A stretch of 64,000 nucleotides of DNA from a virus. Taxonomy: Duplodnaviria; Caudoviricetes. Positions 1,710 through 62,679 of the stretch are shown piece after piece (position 1 is the first letter of the stretch; each line of letters opens with the position of its first letter). Under the pieces are notes generated by a model, which ran no database searches, was not told the origin of the DNA, and saw only the letters and a list, made by a program, of their open reading frames with translations. The position numbers and the translations under genes were made by a program. The stretch is taken from positions 1-64,000 of IMG/VR virus record IMGVR_UViG_3300032038_006680. One strand, given 5' to 3'.

Positions 1710-2753
1710 ATGAATTACATACTGGCTAAACACAACTTTTGGCAACTCGTTCATAAGCAAGTTATCGTATACAGAGATGCCCCTGACTATGTTTTAGACT
1801 ATTTAAGACACAGGGGCTCTACAGTCATTCATTCTGAAACAAGACCAGAAAATGCTGTATTGATTAAAGGTACAGGACTTGACTGGCCAACAAAAGAAGA
1901 GCTTGGTGTTGTTGATGAAGTAGAAAATGACATTCAAGAAGGCTATGAAGTTGTTCAGTTTGTTGGCAACACAGCCAAAGGATTAAACATCTACAGAAGA
2001 CAGAAACTTAACGCTTATTTGAAGAAGCATTACAAAGTCGCAACAGTTTATAAAGGCTCTGTTGACACTTCTAACTGTAAGTTTATTGTTATTTCAGACC
2101 CAAGAGGAGCTGATGAGTTAGTAGAGAAAGCCAAATGCCCAATTTATTATGACAAGACAGATATGTGGGATGCTTTGGTAGACGGTATTGATAAGACAGT
2201 ATTAAACAAGGCTACTGGAGTATTCTGTTCAAGTAGGTTTATCTATGCTAACACTGAACACAAGAATAAAGTTTTGTTAGAGAATGCTGCCAATTATTAC
2301 CAATATCCATTTGACAGGGTTTATGAGAAAGAAAACATTGCTGTTTATGTTGGAAGAGCTGAGAATAAAGTTGATGTTGAGTTTTGCGATAAATTGAGAC
2401 AAGAACATCCAGACTTCAAGTTTGTTTCTATTGGATTAGAAATTCCTGGTTTTGAGAATATTCCTTCTATGAACTGGGAAGATATGATGAAGTATTTACA
2501 GAAATGTAAAGTAGGTTTAGTTCCATTAAAAGACAACGCATATACAGCTGGTCAGTTTAACTTAAAAGTATGGGATTATATCTTAAACAAAATGCCTGTA
2601 ATTGTTACTAATGACTACAATTACAAGAGCATCAAGAATGTTCACAAAGAGTGGACAACTGAGTTTGTTGAAGAGCCTATAACTTATTGGAATTCTGTAT
2701 TTGACAAGATTCTTTCTTATATAGAGGAAGACACGGAGGACGGCTTATGCTAA
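1710..2753 (+). CDS. GT-B fold glycosyltransferase (GT4-like C-terminal half)
   Basis: AVYVGR, FVSIG, LQKCKVGLVP...NLKVWDYI..KMPVIVT resemble the nucleotide-sugar binding half of GT4/Glyco_trans_1_4 enzymes. Confidence 0.65.
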   Translation: MNYILAKHNFWQLVHKQVIVYRDAPDYVLDYLRHRGSTVIHSETRPENAVLIKGTGLDWPTKEELGVVDEVENDIQEGYEVVQFVGNTAKGLNIYRRQKLNAYLKKHYKVATVYKGSVDTSNCKFIVISDPRGADELVEKAKCPIYYDKTDMWDALVDGIDKTVLNKATGVFCSSRFIYANTEHKNKVLLENAANYYQYPFDRVYEKENIAVYVGRAENKVDVEFCDKLRQEHPDFKFVSIGLEIPGFENIPSMNWEDMMKYLQKCKVGLVPLKDNAYTAGQFNLKVWDYILNKMPVIVTNDYNYKSIKNVHKEWTTEFVEEPITYWNSVFDKILSYIEEDTEDGLC

Positions 2754-3577
2754 CTCACAACTTGGATAACTTCTTTGAGGTAAGCTGGAAAATATCAGAG
2801 AAATGCAATATGAATTGCCCGTATTGCGTTGTTAAGAATAAAGCTCAGTTTCCAGATGCTGAGACTATAAGAAGAATTGCGCATAAAATAAATGAGCTTA
2901 TAAATATAAGAAAATGTAGTAATTCTCAGGTTTACATAACAGGTGGTGAGCCTTATTTACAAGACATAAATGAAATTATCAAGATATGGGATTCGCCATA
3001 TTTAAGAATGGTAAGAATAACTTCAAACATGTCATTAGATAAGGAAAAGTATTTGCAAACAAGGTCAATCTTAAAAGAAAGGGGCGTTAAGTTCTTGTTA
3101 AGAGCTTCTTATCATAATGGCGACTTCGGTCAATTCGTAAAGAAGTGTTCAGAATGTCAAGTTGATAACATAAATATAGTCTGTAATGACGATAACTATG
3201 AGTGGTACTTAAATGAGCTTAACAAGTTTGAGTTTGATGGAAACAAATATATCGTAGTTAACAACAGAATTATGATGATTAACTGGATGGTCGAGAGACT
3301 TCCAGGTGGCGGTATTCCTGAAACAGTAAAGAATATTCCAAAGAAGTCAAGAACATTCAGTATGGAAAATGGTTGCTGGTGTTCTGCAGGTTGGACTACA
3401 ATAAGAATTGAGCCATTCGGGGATATTAAAAGATGTTTCTCTACAGAGGTTGAAGGTAACATTTTGAAAGAAATAAAGACATTTCCAGAGAAGTATAGAT
3501 GTACAAGAAAGACTTGCTCAGGATGCCAGAATATATTTGTTTATGATGAAAGTGAGATAAAATATTTTCATAGGTAA
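2747..3577 (+). CDS. Radical SAM protein with C-terminal Cys cluster
   Basis: CNMNCPYC (CxxxCxxC), ITGGEP, ITSN, plus C-terminal CSAG...CF...CTRKTCSGC (Twitch/SPASM-like). Confidence 0.85.
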   Translation: MLTHNLDNFFEVSWKISEKCNMNCPYCVVKNKAQFPDAETIRRIAHKINELINIRKCSNSQVYITGGEPYLQDINEIIKIWDSPYLRMVRITSNMSLDKEKYLQTRSILKERGVKFLLRASYHNGDFGQFVKKCSECQVDNINIVCNDDNYEWYLNELNKFEFDGNKYIVVNNRIMMINWMVERLPGGGIPETVKNIPKKSRTFSMENGCWCSAGWTTIRIEPFGDIKRCFSTEVEGNILKEIKTFPEKYRCTRKTCSGCQNIFVYDESEIKYFHR

Positions 3578-14100: not shown

Positions 14101-16200
14101 GCATTGTCGCTGAAGGACGGAGTGAAGATGTCGGCTTCTGCCTTGTCGGGTCTGTCAAAAGCCTTGGAGAGCCAGCTTTCCGTTTATGAGAAACTTACCG
14201 TTGACATGATAGGTGTCGGCGAAGACTGGGCTACGATTCAGAACAGCCTGAACGAGAAGTTTGCGAACAATCCTTACCTGAAAGAAGGCAATTTCCTTGA
14301 CAATGCGTTTCAGGCATCTGCTAAAAATATAGGCGGCTACTCGCTCGGATATGACTCTGAGCTTGGAATGATTGTAAAGGACAGTACGGGAGCCACAAAA
14401 GGAAGCGTAGAAGAACTTAAAAAAAGCTCTAATACTCTGAGTGGAGATTTGAAAGAATTCGTTGACTCAATAAAAGTGGATACGATTGTAGAAGCACTCG
14501 ACAATCTCCGTAAATCAACAATGAGTCTGAATGATACAGTCAGTCTCGCAAATAGTTTGGCAAACCAGAGCGTTGATTTCAGGAATCGCGCCGGACAGCT
14601 TCGCGGTGAGGCTTGGGGAAATTCAATCGGAGCCATGTCTGCCATGTCAGTATCAGCAGGAAATAGGACTGTATCAAAGGGAGCAAAAAATCTTCTCTCA
14701 GAATATATGACAGGCTTTGCAGGAAAACTCGCCAGCTACGATACGCTCGATAACGCAACTATTGATAAGATTTTTAAAGATAACGGAGGGGAATCTACTT
14801 TAGGGAAAAACCAATACGAGGCTATACGACAGGCTTCCGAAAATTTTAAGAACGCAGGATTCGATTATCAAAAACAAACTGACGCGATGAAACATCTCTT
14901 TGACGCTTTCGGAATACAGATGAAGGAGCTGATAGAAGCTGCTGAGGACGCGGCTCAGGCAGAGGAAGGAAAAAAATATTCAGACGCGGCTTCAAATGCA
15001 CTGAAAAACAATTATTTTGACTCATGGACTCAGGCAGGTAATAAATACGCATATCTGCAAAAAGGAAACTCTATCACTGAGCAGAATCTTATGACATCAC
15101 TGGGACTTGGCGATATGAGTTTTTCAAAGATGTCCGCAAATATGACACAACAGGTTTTTGCTGATAAAAAATTAAACCCAGAATCTACGCAATATGCCCA
15201 GCTTCTTAACGGATACAAAGAAGCTGGTGGAAATTTTATTAAAGATACATGGGGAGAAGGTGAATGGGGGCAATTTAATACAGAAGGTTTTAACGCAGCC
15301 ATAGATTCAGGAAACCTTGAGGAAGCACGGCGAATTATTGAAAGCATGGGCGGAAATTTCGATGAAATGACGAACAGTGTGAACAAGACGAATCTTGCTT
15401 TTGATGATATGGCTCACAGGCTCTCTGATTTAGGTGCTAATCTGGGTAATCTTCTTGAGGACTTCGCGGGTAACGCAGTGTCGTCAACTATGGAAACATG
15501 GGGCAAATCCCTTGCGGAAGGTGCGGATTCATCCAAATCTCTTATGGAGAATTTCAGACAGCTTGGCGCGGGCCTTATGCAGAATATGGGCACGATGATA
15601 ACCCAGGCAGGTCTTTCAATGGCGATTCACGCCTCTTCAAAGGGTGAGGTTCTTGCGGGATTGGCAATCGCTGCGGCAGGCGCCGGAGCTTCGTTTCTGG
15701 GAGGGTATTTATCCGCTGATAAGAGTGAAGATGAAGGTGAAGAAGATGAGTATCAAAGACTTTCAAAAATAAAGGATGACCTTGCCGACCTCTTGAAGCA
15801 GGCCCGTGAGGACGCTATTTATTACGAGAACACTCTCCGCCACAAGAACGCTATATCTGCGAACGACAGCTTCACGCAGAAAAAAGTAAACGACGCTATC
15901 ATAACGCCGTCAGGAGACATTATTTCGACACACCCGGACGATTACCTTATCGCCACCAAGACACCTCAGACCTTACTCGGAAGCGGTGCTGGTGCTCCGA
16001 CAATAAACTTCTCAGTGATAGATAAGTCAACGGGAATAAAGGTCACGCAGCAGAAATCCACTTACAACGAGAATGATAACTCGATTGACTTTACGGCAAT
16101 AATCGAGAGCAAGGTGAACGAGATTATCGCAAGCTCTAAGGGTGACGATGCCTTTGCCGCACGGGAAGCCCGGCTGAGAGGAAGGAGCGTCATAGCTTAA
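11176..16200 (+). CDS. Tape measure protein
   Basis: 1674 aa, helical; ATKSPFGVQQ...IGDTAGG...YAQIMSIGKASMLDMRQFAYAGIPIF tape-measure motif; C-terminal hydrophobic Ala/Gly helices. Confidence 0.9.
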   Translation: MAETEIAAGIDLSVNVQNALKGIQAVDKSTENLVKSFQDVSAQVDAVIQRIEKLTTVASKANRTVNNTRNDYQNSTFTNQNNFSNATYAATSATGASMVSPTGSDKAFKDFQKAQIDETNARIELTNEIKEDTKERKRLRKYRANTERISASAAQTKANKKEDQTTAEYIADRAKLADAKLLNAKANQAGALNKNWRYQIGRGVTQVGDKLSTMGTGGRIGGDLLSVVGKSIISPASAAGLAIAKLGEGVLDFAKAATTAYAEIESIKTQLGVVFSSQSQADSMFGELSVYATKSPFGVQQTSELAVLLKQSGVYASDLLSTLKMIGDTAGGNMEKMKRIANNYAQIMSIGKASMLDMRQFAYAGIPIFEAVSKELKVSQSTLREMISDGKVSSEVIEKVFKDLTGVNGIFNNATLLGSKTVKSRLQNLSDEKQLAMASVGNSFWNLGGTSNSTSIAKQFLTSAENFYKSINNLSSNFVDSQTYAYAKSSFSLLEDLKKAYKQALQDENPKLAEAIGQQIAIIRSSEFNESSIRAEFAKQFLKDNGLDNKKIISNENYLRLENEIIDILKKYGKVLGNGGYRNPNISEINKFLDTGNLSTASIALRGAPRTLLDNLYSEYSSVINKGAVNVSLLNAGQSANGKIDFEKLNNAFAYRGSELEKSIISFSESADKLGKKSDSLFSLSEKANQEFKHSKEGQEEEKKEKERKDAELAEFYNKMSSMYDSNINRVKASEIRNLESLSAFYESGFVGKVTALKGTEEYLSGSENADNVLEIEKNVENVLQILSALRKSGDLSSKDTDKIEQQLGFILNTIGTGMSPDGKFKGLSNGNARSLQSFLYEIADIANDFSDDNVLKKLLGDIFVKYTETASKPRFASDEKKGKDLPDYIPLWKRIVANATGWDASLVGNSGSGFIDKYSNQAARNVVTGGVQGLVSSGAMAGDILSRMRYDDEQNKQGVRQINWKKTESDMIKDALSLKDGVKMSASALSGLSKALESQLSVYEKLTVDMIGVGEDWATIQNSLNEKFANNPYLKEGNFLDNAFQASAKNIGGYSLGYDSELGMIVKDSTGATKGSVEELKKSSNTLSGDLKEFVDSIKVDTIVEALDNLRKSTMSLNDTVSLANSLANQSVDFRNRAGQLRGEAWGNSIGAMSAMSVSAGNRTVSKGAKNLLSEYMTGFAGKLASYDTLDNATIDKIFKDNGGESTLGKNQYEAIRQASENFKNAGFDYQKQTDAMKHLFDAFGIQMKELIEAAEDAAQAEEGKKYSDAASNALKNNYFDSWTQAGNKYAYLQKGNSITEQNLMTSLGLGDMSFSKMSANMTQQVFADKKLNPESTQYAQLLNGYKEAGGNFIKDTWGEGEWGQFNTEGFNAAIDSGNLEEARRIIESMGGNFDEMTNSVNKTNLAFDDMAHRLSDLGANLGNLLEDFAGNAVSSTMETWGKSLAEGADSSKSLMENFRQLGAGLMQNMGTMITQAGLSMAIHASSKGEVLAGLAIAAAGAGASFLGGYLSADKSEDEGEEDEYQRLSKIKDDLADLLKQAREDAIYYENTLRHKNAISANDSFTQKKVNDAIITPSGDIISTHPDDYLIATKTPQTLLGSGAGAPTINFSVIDKSTGIKVTQQKSTYNENDNSIDFTAIIESKVNEIIASSKGDDAFAAREARLRGRSVIA

Positions 16201-17144
16201 TGAAAAGCATAGTTCGTCTTGAAGACTTAGACCCTGCTGACTTTATCATAAAATGGCGTATGACGGAGATATGTAATCTGAAATGTTCCTATTGCATAAG
16301 AGGCTGGCGAGAAAACAGAGAATTTGATAGGGAAATACTTTCTGCACAGGAGAAAAGACTCTGTGAGGTTGCGGAAAAGCTATCCTCTATTCTCGATAAA
16401 ACGAGATTTAATAATATAAAGATTGACCTTATAGGTGGCGAAGTGACTTTACTTGATTTAAAGGGAATACTGTCACATTTGGCCACAAAGAAAATTACAA
16501 AAATACAGGTTACGACTAATTTTATGAGAGACGCTGATTATTACGCTTCTCTCGCCGTTTATCTGAAAGAGCGCGGTATATCACTGTCAATGACGGCCTC
16601 TTTCCATTATGAGTTTCAGTCATTTGAAAAATACTTTGAGAAAGTCTGTAAGGTAAAAGACAAGGTGGGTATTTTTACTGCGGAAATCGTCTCAAATGAA
16701 AAGAATCAGCCTTTATGCAGAAGATTTCAGGCGAAGTGCAAGGAACTTGGAATAAATTATATGATAGAGGCTGATTTAAGGAATTCTTCTAAAACAGCGA
16801 GGGAAAAAGGGTTTTTAGTTGACGGCAATAAACCGTCTAATATTCCCAGATACAAAGCGATATTTACAGATAACACTCAAAAATTTTATACGACGCGAAA
16901 CCAGTTTCTTACAGATAAAAACATCATAGAAAACTCTGACTTAAAATATATGAAAACTAAAGGATATTACTGTACTAATACCAGCGATTTCTTTTACCTC
17001 GATTTTGACATGGCTGTGGGAAGAACCGAACAGAGCGACTCCTGTACGAACCGTATGCCGATAGAAGATTTTAAGGTGCTTCCGCCAAGAAAATGCCCTC
17101 ATAACAAATGCTCTCTTTGCGGACACATGAGCCTATGGCGGTGA
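16200..17144 (+). CDS. Radical SAM protein (paralog of 2747-3577)
   Basis: CNLKCSYC, LIGGEV, VTTNF, TASFH, C-terminal C...C...CPHNKCSLC. Confidence 0.85.
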   Translation: MKSIVRLEDLDPADFIIKWRMTEICNLKCSYCIRGWRENREFDREILSAQEKRLCEVAEKLSSILDKTRFNNIKIDLIGGEVTLLDLKGILSHLATKKITKIQVTTNFMRDADYYASLAVYLKERGISLSMTASFHYEFQSFEKYFEKVCKVKDKVGIFTAEIVSNEKNQPLCRRFQAKCKELGINYMIEADLRNSSKTAREKGFLVDGNKPSNIPRYKAIFTDNTQKFYTTRNQFLTDKNIIENSDLKYMKTKGYYCTNTSDFFYLDFDMAVGRTEQSDSCTNRMPIEDFKVLPPRKCPHNKCSLCGHMSLWR

Positions 17145-32181: not shown

Positions 32182-32252
32182 ATGATATGAGAGATAAAAA
32201 CAGAGCTTAAACAACTTCTTTATTTAAGCCTCATTTTTTGCCGTGCTACCCT
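32182..32252. promoter_or_regulatory. Back-to-back pair of phage family promoters
   Basis: Minus: TTAAGC(32210-05)-N17-TATCAT(32187-82); plus: TTAAGC(32224-29)-N17-TACCCT(32247-52); both put a start codon at the 7th base after the -10. Confidence 0.75.
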
Positions 32253-32258
32253 ATCGGC

Positions 32259-33779
32259 ATGATGAACCCGATATGTGCGAAATGTATCTATCTCACAAGT
32301 GAAAAAGAAAAATTCAGAAGATGTCCCGCTATCCCGATTTTTCACCGCGATATGCTCTGCTCGAACAGCGAGAATGCGAGGAAAGACCATGTTGACGGGG
32401 TGGCGTATAAGCCGTTTTGCGAGGAAGTGAACCGCCACGGCGAGTGCCTTGTGTATATGCCAAAAGGTCTTGAATCTCCGAAAATCGTGTTTGATGATTT
32501 GGATAATGTCGTGCGTATCTGCGGGACAAAGCCTTTTGTGGTCACTTATGATGACGGAGAATTAAATGCAAACCTCCCTGAATCGGGAATATATGACGAG
32601 GAAACAAAGGTTTATTCAGAGGAATTCAGTCTTCCTCATACCTGCAAGGTAAACGCCGCTTGCGTTGAGGACGGCGTACTTTCAGAGACAGCTACCCTTT
32701 TCTGTGAGATACCCGATACTCCTGAAATCGAGTTTGATAAGGCTACTAACACCGTCATAATCAAGTCTTACAACAAGGTCTACTTCACTACTGACGGAAA
32801 GAATGTTACTGAGGATTCTCCTGTTTACACAGGGCCTTTTGTCATTGACCACAATACCACGGTCAAGTGCCGCTCATACGCGAGGGAAGATTTCTCCGAG
32901 CAGGTTTCAATGCTCTGCATTTCCATCGAGCCACCTGTTATTGACTTCAACGCTGACTTGAACGAGGTCTCAATTTCCGCTGACGACAAGATTCTCTATT
33001 CTACTGACGGAAGCGATATTTACGATGACGCGGCTGAATACGACGGCCCGTTTGTAATTAATAAGAACACTGTCGTAAAGGCAGCCTGTATCGTAGACGG
33101 AGAGCTTTCTGAGCAGGTTGAGCTTGAGTGCAAGGTTCCTAATGTTCCTGTCATCACTTACGACCAGACTACCCACAAGGTTACGATTGAAAGTGAGAAC
33201 GAAGTACGCTACACGACTAACGGAGAAGATGTGAAGAAAAAAGATGTGCTCTACTCTGCCCCATTTTCAATTACCGAGACCTGCACGGTCAAGGCTGTTT
33301 CCGTTGTGGGTGACAGGATGAGCGAGCAGGCAGAACTCCTCTGTGTATTCGTTTCTGCCCCAAAGATTACTTTTGACCCTGACACCAATACGGTCTCAAT
33401 CACAGGCGAGGACAAAATTCTTTATTCAACTGACGGCTCAAAGATTTACGATGACGCTGAGGAATATACGGAGCCGTTTGTCATTATGAAGAATACGACT
33501 GTAAAGGCCGCCTGCATTAAGGACGGAGTTCTCTCCGATGAAGTTACCCTCACCTGCAAGGTTCCGAGCGTACCAACCATCACATTTGATTCAAAGACAA
33601 AGACTGTCACGATTAAGGGAGAGAATACAATCCTCTACACCACGGACGGAAGCGATGTAAAGAAAAAGGACGCTGAGTATAAGACTGCGTTCAAAATTAC
33701 TGCTACTACCACGGTCAAGGCAAGGACTATTGTTGATAACAGGTTGTCTGAGCAGGCTGAGTTGGAGTGCGTGATTTAA
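32259..33779 (+). CDS. Cys-rich N-terminus plus six Fn3-associated / CHB_HEX_C_1-like repeats
   Basis: About 72-aa repeats P.I.FD...N.V.I......Y(S/T)TDG...Y..PF.I....TVKA; no signal peptide. Confidence 0.75.
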   Translation: MMNPICAKCIYLTSEKEKFRRCPAIPIFHRDMLCSNSENARKDHVDGVAYKPFCEEVNRHGECLVYMPKGLESPKIVFDDLDNVVRICGTKPFVVTYDDGELNANLPESGIYDEETKVYSEEFSLPHTCKVNAACVEDGVLSETATLFCEIPDTPEIEFDKATNTVIIKSYNKVYFTTDGKNVTEDSPVYTGPFVIDHNTTVKCRSYAREDFSEQVSMLCISIEPPVIDFNADLNEVSISADDKILYSTDGSDIYDDAAEYDGPFVINKNTVVKAACIVDGELSEQVELECKVPNVPVITYDQTTHKVTIESENEVRYTTNGEDVKKKDVLYSAPFSITETCTVKAVSVVGDRMSEQAELLCVFVSAPKITFDPDTNTVSITGEDKILYSTDGSKIYDDAEEYTEPFVIMKNTTVKAACIKDGVLSDEVTLTCKVPSVPTITFDSKTKTVTIKGENTILYTTDGSDVKKKDAEYKTAFKITATTTVKARTIVDNRLSEQAELECVI

Positions 33780-33804
33780 GCTAATTTTTTTTCTGAACTA
33801 CTCT
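33776..33804 (+). promoter_or_regulatory. Phage promoter family copy (TTAAGC-N17-TACTCT)
   Basis: 17-nt spacer with T-tract. Confidence 0.65.
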
Positions 33805-33808
33805 GAGT

Positions 33809-33950
33809 TTCAGCAGATGTAAGCAATCTGCTGAATAAAACATTGGAGTGATGAGAAGCTTTATTAAATTCGGTTTGTAACGGTTCTTTTCCAATGGGGA
33901 ACTGTGAAGGTGTGCTTGACCGCAAGCCGAATCCAATAAGGCTTTTTGTT
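33809..33950 (+). ncRNA. Candidate structured leader RNA (unassigned)
   Basis: 10-bp hairpin 33809-18/33826-35, then a long stem 33856-65/33935-44, 33868-77/33923-32, 33881-84/33919-22 followed by a U-rich tract. Confidence 0.45.
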
Positions 33951-33970
33951 TGCTCCGAACAGGAGTAGTT

Positions 33971-34609
33971 ATGACAGAAAATGATTTTTTGCTTCAGGAC
34001 CGAATAGCAAAAATCAAATCAATCAACGAGCAGGAAAATGTAATAGGTGAAGTTTGGAAAAAATGCGTTGACTATGAAGATTTGTATCTAATTTCAAATA
34101 AGGGGCGAATAAAAAGTGTCCCTAGAACCATTGAATTTATAAAATATGGGAAAAAATATAGTCGTAAAGTTTACGAAAGAATTTTGAAACTTAATAAACA
34201 ATTTAATGGATATTTATCAGTTACAGTTTCTAGTTCTAACTTCCCCAAAGGAAAAAAAGAATTAGTTCATCGTTTAGTTGCAAAAACTTTTATTCCTAAT
34301 CCAAGTAACTTACCGTGTATAAACCATAAAGATGAATGTAAGTCAAATAATAGTGTAGAAAATTTAGAATGGTGTGATAAAAGTTACAATGCATTATATG
34401 GAACATGTCAAGAAAGAGTTAAAAAACACAAAATAAAACCTGTATACATGCTTGATAAATCCACTGAAAAGATTATTAAAAAATTCACATCTATTTCAGA
34501 CGCTGCTAAAGAAACTGGTGCTCAAATTGCAAATATAAGTGCAGTGGCTCGTGGGCGTGCAAAAACTGCTTGTGGTTATAAATGGAAATATGCAAATAAA
34601 GAGGAATAA
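33971..34609 (+). CDS. NUMOD4-HNH-NUMOD1 homing endonuclease
   Basis: EVWK..V.YE.LY.ISN.GRIKS (NUMOD4); VHRLVA..F.PNP.N.P.INHKD....NN.VENLEWC (HNH); F.SISDAA (NUMOD1); AGGAG RBS before ATG 33971. Confidence 0.9.
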   Translation: MTENDFLLQDRIAKIKSINEQENVIGEVWKKCVDYEDLYLISNKGRIKSVPRTIEFIKYGKKYSRKVYERILKLNKQFNGYLSVTVSSSNFPKGKKELVHRLVAKTFIPNPSNLPCINHKDECKSNNSVENLEWCDKSYNALYGTCQERVKKHKIKPVYMLDKSTEKIIKKFTSISDAAKETGAQIANISAVARGRAKTACGYKWKYANKEE

Positions 34610-34616
34610 AAAAGAA

Positions 34617-35531
34617 ATGACAGAAAATGAATTTATATTATCTGACAGAATAGCAAAAATACAAAGCATAAACGCCATATATGGCTTAGAGCATAATGCT
34701 TATGTTTCGTTTTCTGGCGGAAAGGATTCTACCGTGCTGCATTACCTTATTGATGAAGCTTTGCCTGGAAATAAAATACCAAGAGTATTTTTTAATACAG
34801 GCATTGAATATAAGGCAATTCTTTCTTTTGTAAGGGAAATGGCAGCAAAGGATGAACGCTTTGTCATTTATACTGTCGGTAAGAATATAAGGGAAACTTT
34901 ACAGGCCGTAGGCTATCCATTTAAGTCAAAGGAACATTCTCAGAAACTCTATGAATGGAAAAGAGGAATACACAGTAAATCTCACCGCAAATATTTTAGG
35001 GAAGAAGCAGACGGTTTCTCTCCTTGTCCTAAAGCATTGATGTATCAGATACAGCCGGATTTCAATCTTAATATCTCTCACTTCTGTTGCTATGAGTTCA
35101 AAAAGAAGCCAGCGAAAGATTATTCTAAGGAAAGCGGCAGAAAAATCACTATTACGGGAATGATGAAAGCAGAGGGAGGACAGAGAACTACCCTCAACTG
35201 CATTGTAACCGATTCAAAAAGCGGAAAAGTAAAAAAGTTTCACCCAATGGCAGTAGTTTCTCAGGAATGGGAAAACTGGTACATATCTCAGAAATCAATA
35301 AAGTTATGTGAATTGTATTACCCGCCTTATAGCTTTGAAAGGACAGGTTGTAAGGGCTGCCCTTACAACCTGCATTTACAGGAATACCTTGATACTCTTG
35401 AAAAAGCGCTGCCTGCTGAAAGAAAACAGTGTGAATTCATCTGGAAACCTGTTTATGACGAGTACAGACGAATTGGCTACAGATTACGGAAAGAAGATAA
35501 TCAGCCGTCTTTATTCGGAGGTCAGATATGA
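34617..35531 (+). CDS. PAPS-reductase-family (PP-loop) protein
   Basis: SFSGGKDSTVL PP-loop, FFNTGIEY, CCYEFKKKP, ERTGCKGCP; start refined to ATG 34617. Confidence 0.85.
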   Translation: MTENEFILSDRIAKIQSINAIYGLEHNAYVSFSGGKDSTVLHYLIDEALPGNKIPRVFFNTGIEYKAILSFVREMAAKDERFVIYTVGKNIRETLQAVGYPFKSKEHSQKLYEWKRGIHSKSHRKYFREEADGFSPCPKALMYQIQPDFNLNISHFCCYEFKKKPAKDYSKESGRKITITGMMKAEGGQRTTLNCIVTDSKSGKVKKFHPMAVVSQEWENWYISQKSIKLCELYYPPYSFERTGCKGCPYNLHLQEYLDTLEKALPAERKQCEFIWKPVYDEYRRIGYRLRKEDNQPSLFGGQI

Positions 35532-36274
35532 GTTACGACCTCAGACACGGCGACTGCTATGAGATTATCCCTACGCTGCCCGACAATTCCATAGACCTTG
35601 TAATTTCAGACCCGCCTTATCAGTTCGGAACGATTCACGGCTCCGGTATGTTCAGCGAAAAGAACTATGAGAAATACGGACGGACAAGGAACATCAATAT
35701 GCTTCACAACTTGGAGAAACTTGATTCAATCGTATTCGAGCCTATAAAGCTCCTTGATATGCTTGAGCCTAAGATGAAGTCCTTCTACGGATATTTCTTC
35801 TGTAACAAAATGCTTGTCGCTGATTATATCAGTTGGGCGAAAAGCCGTGGATATACTTTTGACATTCTCACGATGATAAAGAAAAACCCCATACCCGCAA
35901 AATCAACACATCATCTTTCTGACATTGAGTACATCGTCCTTATACGCGGCAAAAAGACTTATTGGCAGGGGAAAGGCCTGGAAATGGACGATTACCGCAA
36001 GTGGTTTATGACGACCTGCCAGAAGCGTATTCACCCTGCTGAAAAGCCTGTCGAGCTTCTTGAAAGGTTCGTGCGTGTAAGCTGTCCTGAGAACGGTCTT
36101 ATCTTTGATCCTTTTGCAGGAAGTGGTAGTACAGGAATTGCTTGCCTAAATAATAGGCGTAATTTTATCGGCATTGAAAAGGATGACAATTATTTCGAGC
36201 TTGCAAGCAAAAGAATTAAGGACCGTCAGGACGAAATAAACGGAGTGGGAAGTTTGTTCGAGGGGATGTTATGA
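35528..36274 (+). CDS. DNA N6-adenine/N4-cytosine methyltransferase (beta class)
   Basis: SDPPY catalytic motif precedes HPAEKP and DPFAGSGSTG SAM-binding motif. Confidence 0.9.
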   Translation: MSYDLRHGDCYEIIPTLPDNSIDLVISDPPYQFGTIHGSGMFSEKNYEKYGRTRNINMLHNLEKLDSIVFEPIKLLDMLEPKMKSFYGYFFCNKMLVADYISWAKSRGYTFDILTMIKKNPIPAKSTHHLSDIEYIVLIRGKKTYWQGKGLEMDDYRKWFMTTCQKRIHPAEKPVELLERFVRVSCPENGLIFDPFAGSGSTGIACLNNRRNFIGIEKDDNYFELASKRIKDRQDEINGVGSLFEGML

Positions 36275-40053: not shown

Positions 40054-40095
40054 CTATATCTCAATGATTTGCTGTGCAATATCCTTGATTTCCTG
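40054..40095 (-). repeat. Diverged copy of the last 13 codons + stop of the SbcD-SbcC gene (other copy 42878-42919)
   Basis: Both encode QEIKDIAQQIIEI*; 35/42 nt identical, all 7 differences at third codon positions. Confidence 0.8.
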
Positions 40096-42026: not shown

Positions 42027-42262
42027 AATTTCACCACCTTATATGAGTTCGGGAGCAATTTCTTAAAATGCTTCATTATTTCTGTATTATCTGTTTCCCT
42101 TGCCATTCTTCTTATTCTGTCAAGAACCTCTATAAGATTTTTCCATTCTGACATACAGTAGTTTTTCCACTCTTCTGAATCGAAATTTATGTCAAAACAG
42201 TCCATTGTTATAGGTGTTGTAAGAAGCAGTTTTCTCTCATATTCTATTTGAGTTTTTGTCAT
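42023..42262 (-). CDS. Hypothetical protein
   Basis: ATGA coupling on both sides. Confidence 0.55.
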   Translation of the reverse strand: MTKTQIEYERKLLLTTPITMDCFDINFDSEEWKNYCMSEWKNLIEVLDRIRRMARETDNTEIMKHFKKLLPNSYKVVKL

Positions 42263-42534
42263 CTTTTTTTTATCACCTCCTCAAATTTTGAAGACCTGTC
42301 TGATAAGGGTTTGAAATCAAAATCTGGTAATCGTTCGAAATGAATTATCTTCCCTTCTGATTTTAATCTTATCATATCTTTTATGGCGTCATTGAAATCC
42401 ATGAATTTGCACGGACAAATATGCCCTTTAGAAATGTTCACGAACTGAAATTCAAACGGGCTGTATTTATTCCTTATCAGCCACACCTCAACGGTGTCTT
42501 TTGGTCTTGTTACTGAAAATCTATATATCAGCAT
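42259..42534 (-). CDS. Small conserved protein (paralog of 62425-62679)
   Basis: RPKD.VEVWL ... FVNI(S/T)KGH.CPC.F..F..AI.DM shared. Confidence 0.7.
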   Translation of the reverse strand: MLIYRFSVTRPKDTVEVWLIRNKYSPFEFQFVNISKGHICPCKFMDFNDAIKDMIRLKSEGKIIHFERLPDFDFKPLSDRSSKFEEVIKKR

Positions 42535-42877: not shown

Positions 42878-45800
42878 CTATATCTCAATAATCTGCTGTG
42901 CGATGTCCTTAATCTCTTGACTATGCGTGATAAGCACTGTCAGTCTGGAATTCGCTGCATTGTGTGCCGAAGTTACCATGTTCAGATACTTTGGCCGTAA
43001 CGCTCCGTCAAGGGAACCGTCTGATTCGTCAATAAGCCGTGTGCGGAAATTGAATCCTGTTCGGTTCATCTGTACGATTGAGAATGCATAGAAAAGGGCC
43101 TGCTTTATCCATATACGCTCGCCGGAAGAAACAAGGTCGATTGTCTTTTCGTCATCGTTGTCAGAATCGTACACGAGAATGTTGAAATCCTCGTTTGCTT
43201 TGCGGTTTGCCTTTAATTCTGATGTGCTTCCGAAACGGACGGTGAACTTGTTGCCGTAGCTTTCAGAGAGGATTTTGTTGGTAATCTCTGCAATCTCTGG
43301 AGCGGATTCACGGAGTTCTATTGCAGGAATGCCATTGTTTGAGAAAGCGTCCTCAATGAAGAGATATGCTGTTATCTTCTCGCTCAGTTCCTTGAGTTCC
43401 TTTTTCTTTTCAGTAACAGATTTAAGTTCCTTCCTGTAACGCTCGTTTTCCTTTTCTGCTGACTTTATTGTGGCTGCAAGATCGCTTTTTCTGTTGAGTT
43501 CCCTCTGCAACTTATCCTCAGTTTCTTTCAGCTTCTCGGAAACATCTTCTGCCATTTCGGAATCAACGATTGAATCCATTTTGTCCTGCAAATCATCAAG
43601 CTCCTTTGAAAGTTTCTGATGTTCCTCAACGGCTTCGTCATAAGAGTATTCCTTATAGACTTCATCAACGCTTTCGATAAAATCTGTACAGGATTGTGAT
43701 TCAGATTGTAAATCCACAAGGCTGCCTTCAACCTTTGCCTTTTCATCTGCGAGACTGTCTCTTTCTGTTTCAAGTTCCTTTAAGTCTTTGCGTATCTCAA
43801 TCAAAGCCTTGCTTTCTTTATCAAGTTCTTTTTCAAGGGCTGAAAGTTCATTCTGTGACTTTGTGATATGTGACAGAAGTTCCTGCTTCTTGTGCTCAGA
43901 AATAGGCTGTCCGCAAGTCGGGCATACTTCATCAACTTTGACAATCTGAGACTTGCAAAGTTTTATATCCGCTTCAATCTTGCTTATTGAGAGTTTTTTC
44001 TCAGATTCTTCTTTGCTTTTCTGCATTACCTTTTCGGTAAGATTGTTTATTCTGCCATTCAAGCCAGCCGACTTGTTCATTAGTTCTTCAATAAGCGGTG
44101 CATTTTCTGCTACGGTCTTATTTGCGGAATCAATCTTGTCATAAACGGACATATTGCTTACGGCTTCTTCCAGCTTCTCAAACAGAGGCTTTGTCTCGTC
44201 AAACTCTTTCTTGTACTGGTCGTACAGTGCGGAGTTCGCTTCCCTCACGGCTTTTACTTTCTGATATTCAGCGTCCCTTGCTTTAAGCTCCGCAACTTCC
44301 TTTTCAAGTGCGGCTACTGAAAATTCCTGCCCTTTAAGTTCATTCTGCCATGAGGTTATGTCCTGCTCGTTCTGTCTGATTATGTCTTCGTAGCGTGAGT
44401 ATGAATCAATCTCAGCTTCGATTTTTTCAGCAGATTTCTCCACTTCCTTTCTCTCTTCCCTTGCGATTACGGAAACTTCCTTGAGGTGGTCCGTTCCTGC
44501 AAGTTTTGAGAGCAGTTCCATACGCTCACCTTTTGTTGTTGAAGAAATATCGGGAGTTCCCTTTGTCTGTTCCTTTGCAAAGAAAGCCGTTCTGAGAAAT
44601 ACATCAATGCTTCCGAATGTGGAATCAACCCACTGCTTATAGGAATCAAGTGAGCCGTCAGTTTCTGGAAGTGAAGTCCAGGTCTCACGGTCTTTTGATG
44701 TCTCGACAAAGTAAACGGCTTTCCCTGTCTTTGTTTTTCCGTCTATAAGCATGGAGATTCTGTAGTACAGTCCGGTCTCATCTCTGTAGACAAGAATACG
44801 GTGGCTGTCCTTGAGATAAAAGTTCTCTTTAAGAGTTCCCTCGCGGGTAAGCATACAAGGATATGGGTGACAGTTCTCTATAATTGTTGTCTTACCATGT
44901 CCGTTAGGACCTATTAGGCACACTACCCCGTCATCATATTTCTCAAAATTCAGCTCAAAATCTTCCTTGTGCTGACCGTCCCTGATTCCGATTGCACCTC
45001 TTAATGAGAGCGAGAGAAGTTCAAACGAGTGCTGGGGGTATGCGAGTTTAATGAGAGTGTTATCCTGTATGTCTTGCAGGAGTTCCTTTGTATGCTTTGG
45101 AAGTTTAAGGCCTTTTTCCTTAGCGTACTCCGTCATTTTCTCAACGATAGACTTACGCTTTACGACCTCGCTTTTCGGTGCGTTTTCCGTGTCGATTATA
45201 GTAGGCTCCAGCTTTACAGAAACGGCATTTGTCTTTGCCTTGATTTCATCCGCAAGCTGCTTGAGATTGAGCGTTTTCTTTTCTTCTTTTGTGCATTGAA
45301 AAAGAATCCGAAGATGATTTAATCCAAAGCTATATTTTCCAATAGACTTTAAAGCGTCACCAAGCTGTCCACTTTTATATGTTAAAACATTGTGCTTAAT
45401 GAAATCTAATGTTTTAAAAGTCGGCAAACCGAAAGAAATTCTCTCAACTCTTGTTTCTCCGTTTTCAATAGCCACGAGGTTATAGCAGCCGTCATGTGTC
45501 TCTCCGAAGTCTTTAGGACAGGCGGAGCCGCTGTACCATGCGTTCTTGAATACTTCCTGTGGCTTATGAATATGACCAAGAGCATAGTAGTCAGCATTAA
45601 GAGATTGCAGAAGTCCTTTTGGAATAGCAGTCGGGGAAGAAGCTGACACTCCGTTCTGATAGACGGCACCTTTTACTTCGCCGTGGTAGACGACAATAAG
45701 AGGAGTTTTTATATCCTGAAAAAGAGGGTCTGATGTCTCTTTCTCTCTATACCCTCTCAAGAAATCTCTTAAACCTTCAATACTACCTTTTATGTTGTCG

Positions 45801-46255
45801 TTAATTGCTTTATTTGTTTCTTCAACAGAATTTCTTACATAATTGCTTCTTCTTGGTTCTGGAATACAGTAAATCGTCACTTTATCACAAGCCGTTGCTC
45901 CTGTAAGTGGGTTTATATATTCTTTTCCAAATTCGGGCGATAAGATTTGTATTGAATCTATTACGGTTGTTCTGTCAGACTGAAAAGCGTCTAATGAACC
46001 GTTTGGTTCGTGAGTCGGAGTGCCGTAAATAAAATAAAGATAGGTATGTTTCTCAAGCTCTCTTACAGCTGAGATAATATCAGAGAATCCACTTCCCTTT
46101 GTCGCAGTTATAGTTGAATCCCAGAAATCACCTGCAAAGAGAATAAAATCAATGTCACCCCGCTTGCAGCGTTCTATAAGAGTATTGAGAATATGAAGTG
46201 TCTGTGGTAAACGCTCTCTTGAAGCGTGAATGTCTGCAATATGAATAAAACGCAT
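42878..46255 (-). CDS. Single-chain SbcD/Mre11 nuclease - SbcC/Rad50 ATPase fusion
   Basis: HIADIH, AGDFWD, YGTPTHE, LGHIH nuclease motifs; GPNGHGKT Walker A, CPTC hook, VSSGE signature, LIDESDGSLD Walker B/D-loop, LITHS H-loop. Confidence 0.9.
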   Translation of the reverse strand: MRFIHIADIHASRERLPQTLHILNTLIERCKRGDIDFILFAGDFWDSTITATKGSGFSDIISAVRELEKHTYLYFIYGTPTHEPNGSLDAFQSDRTTVIDSIQILSPEFGKEYINPLTGATACDKVTIYCIPEPRRSNYVRNSVEETNKAINDNIKGSIEGLRDFLRGYREKETSDPLFQDIKTPLIVVYHGEVKGAVYQNGVSASSPTAIPKGLLQSLNADYYALGHIHKPQEVFKNAWYSGSACPKDFGETHDGCYNLVAIENGETRVERISFGLPTFKTLDFIKHNVLTYKSGQLGDALKSIGKYSFGLNHLRILFQCTKEEKKTLNLKQLADEIKAKTNAVSVKLEPTIIDTENAPKSEVVKRKSIVEKMTEYAKEKGLKLPKHTKELLQDIQDNTLIKLAYPQHSFELLSLSLRGAIGIRDGQHKEDFELNFEKYDDGVVCLIGPNGHGKTTIIENCHPYPCMLTREGTLKENFYLKDSHRILVYRDETGLYYRISMLIDGKTKTGKAVYFVETSKDRETWTSLPETDGSLDSYKQWVDSTFGSIDVFLRTAFFAKEQTKGTPDISSTTKGERMELLSKLAGTDHLKEVSVIAREERKEVEKSAEKIEAEIDSYSRYEDIIRQNEQDITSWQNELKGQEFSVAALEKEVAELKARDAEYQKVKAVREANSALYDQYKKEFDETKPLFEKLEEAVSNMSVYDKIDSANKTVAENAPLIEELMNKSAGLNGRINNLTEKVMQKSKEESEKKLSISKIEADIKLCKSQIVKVDEVCPTCGQPISEHKKQELLSHITKSQNELSALEKELDKESKALIEIRKDLKELETERDSLADEKAKVEGSLVDLQSESQSCTDFIESVDEVYKEYSYDEAVEEHQKLSKELDDLQDKMDSIVDSEMAEDVSEKLKETEDKLQRELNRKSDLAATIKSAEKENERYRKELKSVTEKKKELKELSEKITAYLFIEDAFSNNGIPAIELRESAPEIAEITNKILSESYGNKFTVRFGSTSELKANRKANEDFNILVYDSDNDDEKTIDLVSSGERIWIKQALFYAFSIVQMNRTGFNFRTRLIDESDGSLDGALRPKYLNMVTSAHNAANSRLTVLITHSQEIKDIAQQIIEI

Positions 46256-62165: not shown

Positions 62166-62425
62166 CAGCCGTAAGGAGTTTTGTATCTTTTCAAAAGCTC
62201 CTTAAATATGATGTCTACCTTATGAGCAGCGCGTAAATCTTCCCAAGTCTGTTCATCAAACTTAATAACCTTGCTTATCACGGCTGTTGCCACAACCTTA
62301 CCTTTTGATTCGATAAGGTAAATTTTCTCGCCAATCTTTTTAGTCTGAGAACCACGAACTTCAATCCTTTTACCGTGAGAAAGTATTCGTTCAAGCCAGT
62401 AGGGTTTTATTATCAATCCGTCCAT
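62075..62425 (-). CDS. ASCH domain protein
   Basis: GLIIK.YW...IL..GKRIEVRG...GE.IYL ... YGW.LEDV. Confidence 0.8.
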   Translation of the reverse strand: MDGLIIKPYWLERILSHGKRIEVRGSQTKKIGEKIYLIESKGKVVATAVISKVIKFDEQTWEDLRAAHKVDIIFKELLKRYKTPYGWCLEDVREVTPFDYEKHQGAVIWVKDVKKI

Positions 62426-62679
62426 TATTCTGCCTTTTCAGTTTCCAGAGGTTCAGAAATCAAATCTGGTAATCTTATATATTTCAGAATCTTACCTTCT
62501 TTTATTTGTTTATCCATATCTCCAATCGCCTGTTCGAAATTCTCAAATACACAAGGACAAACATGACCTTTAGTTATATTTACAAAACGACAACCTGTAG
62601 CAAGCCCTTTATTGTTCATTAACCAAACTTCTACAGCGTCTTTTGGTCTGATAACATAGAATCGTATTATTTTCCCCAC
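62425..62679 (-). CDS. Small conserved protein (paralog of 42259-42534)
   Basis: RPKDAVEVWL...FVNITKGHVCPC. Confidence 0.7.
   Translation of the reverse strand: MGKIIRFYVIRPKDAVEVWLMNNKGLATGCRFVNITKGHVCPCVFENFEQAIGDMDKQIKEGKILKYIRLPDLISEPLETEKAE

Follow-up and report, generated by a model that had tools for sequence, protein, structure and literature searches.

Why two adjacent and otherwise dissimilar genes of a rumen phage should begin with almost the same residues is the question raised by the locus described here. It lies in a stretch of 64,000 nucleotides (the window, to which all positions refer), comprising the first 64 kb of an 81,263-base IMG/VR virus record (IMGVR_UViG_3300032038_006680; Duplodnaviria, Caudoviricetes); the sequencing runs that match it best derive from gut samples of bovine, sheep, and goat origin. 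The first gene is an open reading frame (ORF) for an HNH endonuclease, and the second encodes a PAPS-reductase-like protein. To our knowledge, homing endonuclease genes have been thought to survive in essential genes only within introns or inteins, and otherwise to sit between genes or to split them. The answer favored here, with good though not full confidence, is a homing element that needs no splicing and replaces the 5′ end of the gene that it enters, in the form of a 646-base cassette lodged in codon 21 of a conserved phage PAPS-reductase-like gene. The endonuclease would be translated from the strong start of the host gene itself, and the host protein would be rebuilt from a substitute start carried by the cassette, so that one gene becomes two complete ORFs.

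The two gene starts, here called copy A (on the endonuclease ORF) and copy B (on the PAPS-reductase-like ORF), are clearly related. An earlier note, made from the letters of this DNA, had placed the endonuclease ORF at ATG 33971 behind an AGGAG site and the PAPS-reductase-like ORF at ATG 34617, and both ORFs are as it described. Its account of near-duplicate N-termini with synonymous changes and then abrupt divergence also holds, as 15 of the first 19 residues are identical and the first 19 codons comprise 10 that are identical, 5 with synonymous changes, and 4 with non-synonymous changes. Past residues 19–21 the divergence is complete, with NUMOD4 and HNH_3 in one protein and PAPS_reduct in the other. 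The DNA identity is 42/57 bases over the 19 codons and 43/62 over the whole repeat (69%), with a longest exact run of 14 nucleotides (nt). When the termini of all window ORFs were compared with the window by tblastn, this pair gave E = 6.8e-7, a value surpassed only by a single pair of paralogous ORFs. Along the DNA, copy A comes first, then the endonuclease body, and then copy B, which is in frame with the remainder of the gene; as 646 cannot be divided by 3, the frame of copy B differs from that of copy A.

Alleles that lack the endonuclease identify the inserted unit to the base. Logan contigs of four runs (X2, X3, X4, and X5) were placed on window positions 33400–35500; runs X6–X24, which have small word shares, are not part of the evidence. 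Contigs of X2 (14,837 bases), X3 (14,029 bases), and X5, from three separate cattle-gut studies, join position 34032 directly to position 34679, so that exactly 646 bases are missing, with zero letters in common at the joint. Their flanks are 95–99.5% identical to the window, and the cassette-free record 21 of X5 differs at only 3 of 271 bases on the left and 1 of 216 on the right. Genomes that are otherwise almost the same thus either have the cassette at this one site or lack it. When 34032 is joined to 34679, the result is an open gene of 304 codons that reads ..SINEQYGLEHNAY.. and matches the gene family. The earlier note had predicted endonuclease-free alleles in which SINEQ is followed directly by YGLEHNAY, and these are what the contigs of the three independent studies contain. 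It had also put the insertion about 20 codons into the gene, with the native ribosome-binding site and start kept by the endonuclease; the joint and the presence of copy A in the empty alleles bear this out and refine the site to codon 21, between its second and third bases and after base 62 of the gene, where CA|A becomes CA|G.

The same contigs show which start is native. All of those from X2, X3, and X5 have copy A, and fitting copy B to them would cost approximately 19 extra mismatches. Because the endonuclease-free contigs carry copy A and not copy B, copy A with its AGGAG site is the native start, and copy B is foreign and arrived with the endonuclease. Furthermore, 20 of the 21 residues of copy A are identical to the N-termini of several homologs of the PAPS-reductase-like protein (e.g., P0013 and P0046). 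Base composition agrees with this assignment, with a guanine-plus-cytosine (GC) fraction of 0.27 in copy B, 0.30 in the endonuclease, and 0.39 in the PAPS-reductase-like gene; the cassette as a whole is at 0.29 against 0.39–0.43 in its flanks, and the endonuclease region runs at 25–30% against 40–47% in its surroundings. These data also bear on an older history, in which the gene start was duplicated in tandem, the copies diverged in place, and an endonuclease settled between them later. Such a history would account for direct repeats on both sides of the endonuclease body, but it is quite improbable. The empty alleles, with flanks 95–99.5% identical (up to approximately 99% in X5), have a single start of the copy A type, and thus the 31% divergence between the copies cannot have built up in place. 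Moreover, copy B resembles the endonuclease in base composition and apparently recurs together with it in another genomic background, discussed below.

The PAPS-reductase-like gene is widespread, and its family corroborates the structure of the empty alleles. The protein matches PAPS_reduct (PF01507) at 58.6 bits against a cut-off of 22.5, as well as phrog_424, and has 6,515 homologs, mostly of approximately 300 residues. The top 120 homologs and the loci L001–L015 start with M-T-E-N/H-E-F and continue to SINEQ or SINEL, directly followed by Y-x-L-E-x-N-A-Y. No endonuclease is present upstream of the gene in L001–L015, and no case of two diverged starts without an endonuclease was seen among these loci. 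Copy B restores the host gene, as the earlier note had proposed, in that it is in frame with the native remainder and completes an ORF of 304 residues. Nevertheless, it does not restore the original sequence at the junction. Of the 23 bases that precede the right junction, 13 are the same as in the target and 10 differ, and 4 of the 5 bases adjoining the joint are changed in copy B, which turns E-Q into A-I. The change from EQ to AI or AM is confined to cassette-bearing alleles, and among approximately 100 PAPS homologs parsed, residue 20 is alanine in the window and P0069 (described below) and nowhere else, the others having E, K, D, N, S, Q, or R. Judged from these letters, the recoding may destroy the homing site.

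The endonuclease itself combines recognizable parts behind its borrowed start. NUMOD4 (PF07463) matches residues 27–86 at 50.7 bits (cut-off 23.4), and HNH_3 reaches 24.4 bits, slightly below its cut-off of 24.8; PHROG HNH families are matched as well. Residues H119, N127, N131, and N140 are invariant in the alignment of relatives (A1) and form the predicted catalytic core. In the C-terminal part, two sub-threshold matches were obtained to I-HmuI_NUMOD-like (23.1 bits, cut-off 27, E 5e-5) and NUMOD1 (21.0 bits, cut-off 22.8, E 4e-4). The nearest solved relative is I-HmuI (structure 1u3e, E = 1e-6), to which the HNH core and the C-terminal part align. The cassette begins with the third base of codon 21 and proceeds directly into the NUMOD4 motif. 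Between the junction and this motif there is no in-frame ATG, GTG, or TTG, and the next methionine lies at approximately residue 160. With neither a ribosome site nor a start codon of its own, the endonuclease therefore depends on the ribosome site and ATG of the host gene.

The borrowed N-terminus is not shared by the enzyme family. The earlier note had allowed that free-standing NUMOD4 proteins might commonly carry this N-terminus irrespective of any neighbor, but the PAPS-like N-terminus is found in 0 of 119 NUMOD4/HNH relatives, and the extension is unique to the window in alignment A1. The NUMOD4 tryptophan of the 119 relatives stands mostly at residue 4–10, and most of these proteins start 3–9 residues before it. 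Four relatives (P0206, P0214, P0223, and P0226) have a different extension of 20–25 residues ahead of NUMOD4, which might be another captured gene start. In curated phage genomes, no close relative of either gene was found, the highest identity being 49% for the PAPS-reductase-like protein and approximately 42–43% for the endonuclease; in viral contigs, endonuclease relatives reach at most 42% identity over most of the protein (one segment of 46 residues reaches 72%), and genome contigs gave none.

An exact insertion that is precisely absent from empty alleles would equally be expected of a self-splicing intron with its ORF fused to the upstream exon, or of an intein, with copy B as an incidental feature. 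In organellar group I introns, such in-frame fusion of an ORF to the upstream exon is common. This explanation is nevertheless very hard to sustain. No Rfam intron family matches the insert at E <= 10, and with 577 of its 646 bases taken up by ORF, no space is left for a ribozyme core; in an intron there would also be no reason for a conserved second start, in frame and preceded by a ribosome site. A group I intron is rejected by its ends, as the insert follows an A and ends in T (CAT), where a U before the intron and a final G are expected. A group II intron, for which the canonical ends are GUGYG..AY, is likewise rejected, since the insert starts with GGAAA. An intein is excluded by the stop codon at 34607–34609 and by the different frames of copy B and copy A. 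The earlier note had described the element as free of both intron and intein.

A chimeric assembly joining two phage strains could also place two versions of a gene start side by side, and the fact that the whole stretch is held only by the source sample X1 (share 0.99) is in keeping with this. The features of the junctions make such an artifact barely credible. The longest run common to the two copies is 14 bases, too short to mislead a 31-mer assembler, and both ORFs are intact and in the required frames. In addition, the protein is recorded from two contig records, and the contigs of run X4 begin or end at the same boundaries. The X4 contigs consist of pieces covering approximately 34031–34677 with neither flank, and one of them (record 11) has 206 extra upstream letters that do not match the window.

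The X4 pieces and two protein records point to the cassette in a second genomic background. P0122 is a protein of 134 residues that is 94% identical to the C-terminal part of the endonuclease, with its first residues unmatched, and is apparently truncated or in decay. The PAPS protein P0069 agrees with copy B at 20 of its first 21 residues, whereas the rest is 63.6% identical to the window protein and ranks only 53rd of 120. The same longest contig, of 108,327 bases, is listed for both. Taken together, these sequences give good support, short of demonstration, to the same cassette residing at the same site in a diverged phage, and they support the view that copy B and the endonuclease move together. 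Degenerate patterns for the endonuclease end with the PAPS start, for the start of the endonuclease body, and for the copy B start gave no match in viral, metagenome, or genome contigs, and no short protein with endonuclease residues 1–95, as expected of the N-terminal fragment of a P0122-type copy, was found.

A related arrangement occurs at another gene. Endonucleases P0129–P0131, P0134, and P0147 are approximately 48% identical to the window enzyme (the P0131 cluster comprises 181 member sequences), and they start with M-E-I-K/N-G-K-V-H-C-F-F-E-Q immediately ahead of the NUMOD4 motif. At loci L030 and L031, the downstream gene encodes a 240-residue protein without a Pfam family, which starts with a diverged duplicate of the 13 codons of the endonuclease. 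The two 13-codon copies of L031 share 26 of 39 bases, and most differences fall at third codon positions. Among homologous loci of the 240-residue gene, 74 of 76 have neither an upstream duplicate nor an endonuclease, and the commonest start among these 74 is exactly the 13 residues found on the endonucleases. Comparison of these sequences thus supports the occurrence, at two or more unrelated genes and in one endonuclease clade, of a start-less endonuclease on the native start together with a replacement start on the gene. The fusion of a NUMOD4/HNH endonuclease to the start of the 240-residue gene, with a recoded duplicate start, is visible at L030:2501-3769, L031:2501-3793, and L032:2501-3802. 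The endonuclease ORF of L030 is shortened to 165 residues, and the target gene of L032 is apparently frameshifted just past the duplicate start.

These findings have to be set against the possibility of a single accident, in which illegitimate recombination joined a donor's free-standing endonuclease, lying upstream of its PAPS gene, out of register to the start of a recipient gene. The outcome would be a fossil rather than a mobile unit, with no role for the recoding. Recombination of this kind is the likely origin of the cassette in any case. The second background is known from protein records, and at least one copy looks decayed, as P0122 falls far short of the window enzyme in length and is apparently truncated. 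Three observations nonetheless make a lone accident unlikely: pieces from run X4 span this 646-base unit and neither flank, a start of the copy B type sits on a PAPS gene whose body is only 64% identical, and the fused design recurs with related endonucleases at an unrelated gene.

If the cassette is a homing element, its proposed cycle would begin in a mixed infection, where the enzyme would nick or cut the empty allele near codon 21, by analogy with the WHO elements at FBA1 and with the free-standing endonucleases of phages, both considered below. The break would then be repaired from the cassette-bearing genome, with copy A and the DNA upstream of it as the left homology arm and the sequence from 34679 onward as the right arm. 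Recoding of copy B could have three effects in this scheme. First, the target would not be re-formed at the right junction. Second, the recipient end would be kept from pairing with copy B instead of copy A. Third, loss of the cassette through recombination between the repeats would be suppressed.

Several considerations weigh against the homing element as proposed. Cleavage, homing, and immunity of the recoded copy are argued from analogy with other systems, and expression of this element is presumed. I-HmuI nicks both intron-containing and intron-less DNA and makes most of its contacts in the downstream exon, and for this reason an immunity conferred by upstream recoding is not certain. The arrangement of the window itself is documented only in the source sample X1 and two contig records. 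The second background was read from the protein records P0122 and P0069, so that its left junction and its own copy A are presumed, and the two records are linked through the equal size of their listed longest contigs. Finally, the GAGG core of the ribosome site carried by the cassette lies 12 nt before ATG 34617, a rather long spacing; the stop codon of the endonuclease ends 7 nt before the same ATG.

A broader proposal can be put forward more tentatively, as a possibility that falls somewhat short of even. Among the I-HmuI-like NUMOD4/HNH endonucleases of gut and rumen phages, there may be a clade of obligate "gene-start parasites," that is, cassettes of approximately 0.6 kb without promoter, ribosome site, or start codon that would home into the first 13–21 codons of conserved genes. 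The displaced start would then have two uses, as the translation start of the nuclease and as the left homology arm, and the recoded start would be the immunity determinant. If this is true, replacement of the 5′ end would be a general third way, beside introns and inteins, of living inside phage coding sequences.

The features of the locus are collected in Table 1. The DNA methylase gene that overlaps the end of the PAPS-reductase-like gene probably shares an operon with it. Upstream, a protein of 513 residues (32238–33779, +) with five to six Fn3-associated/CHB_HEX_C_1 repeats (146 bits) ends approximately 190 bases before the endonuclease ORF. The 14-kb X3 contig, which is endonuclease-free and otherwise collinear, has 735 extra letters at 33772–33774, at the end of this Fn3-repeat gene; the site lies just upstream of the leader of the HNH/PAPS operon and is a second variable insertion site within 260 bases. 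A scan for promoters and terminators found sites no more numerous than in shuffled sequence.

Table 1. Coordinates of the endonuclease cassette, its host gene, and the adjoining methylase gene in the window.
Feature	Position	Strand	Basis and remarks
Native Shine-Dalgarno sequence AGGAG	33961..33965	+	Site of the PAPS-reductase-like gene, 5 nt before ATG, now used by the endonuclease ORF; collinear in endonuclease-free contigs
Copy A: original start of the PAPS-reductase-like gene (62 bases from its ATG, 20 2/3 codons), at present the N-terminus of the endonuclease ORF	33971..34032	+	Endonuclease-free contigs X2, X3, X5
Endonuclease ORF, 212 residues (21 borrowed residues, NUMOD4, HNH_3 motif, NUMOD1/I-HmuI-like C-terminal DNA-binding part)	33971..34609	+	Pfam, PHROG, 1u3e
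Inserted 646-base cassette (endonuclease body, stop, ribosome site, replacement gene start)	34033..34678	+	Stretch exactly missing in contigs of three studies
Cassette-borne Shine-Dalgarno-like AGAGGA, in the last endonuclease codons	34600..34605	+	Sequence; putative function
Copy B: cassette-borne substitute start of the PAPS-reductase-like gene	34617..34678	+	43/62 bases as in copy A; GC 0.27; absent from endonuclease-free contigs
Native remainder of the PAPS-reductase-like gene	34679..35531	+	PF01507, 58.6 bits; whole ORF 34617-35531, 304 residues
N6/N4 DNA methylase gene	35528..36274	+	PF01555 at 97 bits; overlaps the end of the PAPS-reductase-like gene

Other repeats and paralogs were observed elsewhere in the window. 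The last 13 codons (42881–42919) of an ORF of 1,125 residues at 42878–46255 (−) recur 2.8 kb downstream at 40057–40095 (−), with 13 of 13 residues and 32 of 39 bases identical and all 7 differences synonymous. Both copies close with TAG, and 9 to 15 bases beyond each of them lies a gene start that reads ATG-CTG-AT(A/T)-TTT; the block between the copies includes the RtcB region. On the sequence, this pair looks like another gene-end duplication. Two small paralogous ORFs 20 kb apart (42259–42534 and 62425–62679, both −) have N-termini that are 57–59% identical over approximately 33 residues. The ORFs at 2747–3577 (+) and 16200–17144 (+) share at the N-terminus a radical-SAM-type motif that contains CxxxCxxC (8 of 19 residues identical, E = 2e-5 when compared within the window).

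The locus provides filled and empty alleles from natural populations that are exact to the base, and with them a phage solution in which a spare, differently spelled gene start is supplied and the old start is taken for translation of the nuclease. This explains how the first codons of a phage gene can have a history different from that of the rest. It is also a warning for annotation, as short N-terminal duplicates beside HNH genes are not errors. The system is compact, with 646 bases, one enzyme, and one defined target junction, and is suited to testing whether recoding protects against self-cleavage and steers repair. That a second, unrelated gene has the same design suggests a lifestyle and not an accident.

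No phage case of a homing endonuclease with a duplicated gene start was found in a literature search whose coverage was not exhaustive, and none appears in the searched part of the text of the ICP1 survey (PMC10448857). A review of T4-like endonucleases (Edgell et al., 2010, PMC2988022) reports no gene-end duplication and uses neither the word "duplication" nor the word "duplicated." The systems that this review covers include the free-standing seg and mob endonucleases ("intronless homing") and the split genes nrdA/mobE of Aeh1 and 39/60 with mobA of T4 (Edgell et al., 2010). Like the present enzyme, these are phage-borne HNH or GIY-YIG endonucleases without intron or intein; they are inherited through break repair, have positions beside or within conserved genes, and in many cases rely on upstream translation. 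Unlike the element described here, they sit between genes or split a gene into two polypeptides that reassemble, whereas the host gene of the present cassette stays a single full-length ORF.

Two further HNH systems of phages can be compared. I-HmuI, the HNH nicking endonuclease of Bacillus phage SPO1, resides in a self-splicing group I intron, whereas no intron is detectable here. The ShiLan insertion is a hidden, out-of-frame HNH gene in a phage methylase gene (Arsenault et al., 2025, PMC11855218). It resembles the cassette in being an HNH element inside a phage coding sequence without a recognizable intron or intein. However, the ShiLan insertion is read through as an extra loop of the host protein, with the nuclease in another frame, and it has no duplicate of a gene end.

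The closest parallels to the replacement of a gene end are eukaryotic. In fungal mitochondria, mobile endonuclease ORFs (mORFs) produce hybrid atp6, atp9, cox2, and nad3 genes, as in Allomyces macrogynus (atp6) and Glomus sp. (Beaudet et al., 2013, PMC3630166). There, as in the phage, a foreign and diverged gene terminus is inserted in phase together with an endonuclease ORF, and the native terminus stays beside it and matches close relatives. The mORFs differ in being C-terminal, organellar, and of the LAGLIDADG or GIY-YIG type, with the order core, foreign end, mORF, native end. The order in the phage element is the mirror image of this, and its native end supplies the translation start of the nuclease.

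The WHO elements of Torulaspora and Lachancea yeasts bring a new 3′ end to FBA1 in place of the old one, and their cleavage was shown to be allele-specific (Coughlan et al., 2020, PMC7282813). In both WHO and the phage element, an endonuclease gene travels with a replacement end of its target gene, which in WHO is resistant; the old end is displaced and serves (in the phage, would serve) as a homology arm, no splicing is involved, and the resulting gene is a chimera of discordant histories. The differences are equally clear. WHO elements act at the 3′ end in a eukaryotic nucleus, encode intein-like LAGLIDADG/zinc-finger enzymes with expression signals of their own, and leave a displaced fragment that decays as a pseudogene. 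The phage element acts at the 5′ end with an HNH enzyme whose cleavage is presumed, and its displaced fragment remains in service, providing the nuclease with a ribosome site, a start codon, and its first 21 residues. Ultimately, homing elements that replace gene ends were already known, and what appears to be new is their occurrence in a phage, at the 5′ end, with capture of the start.

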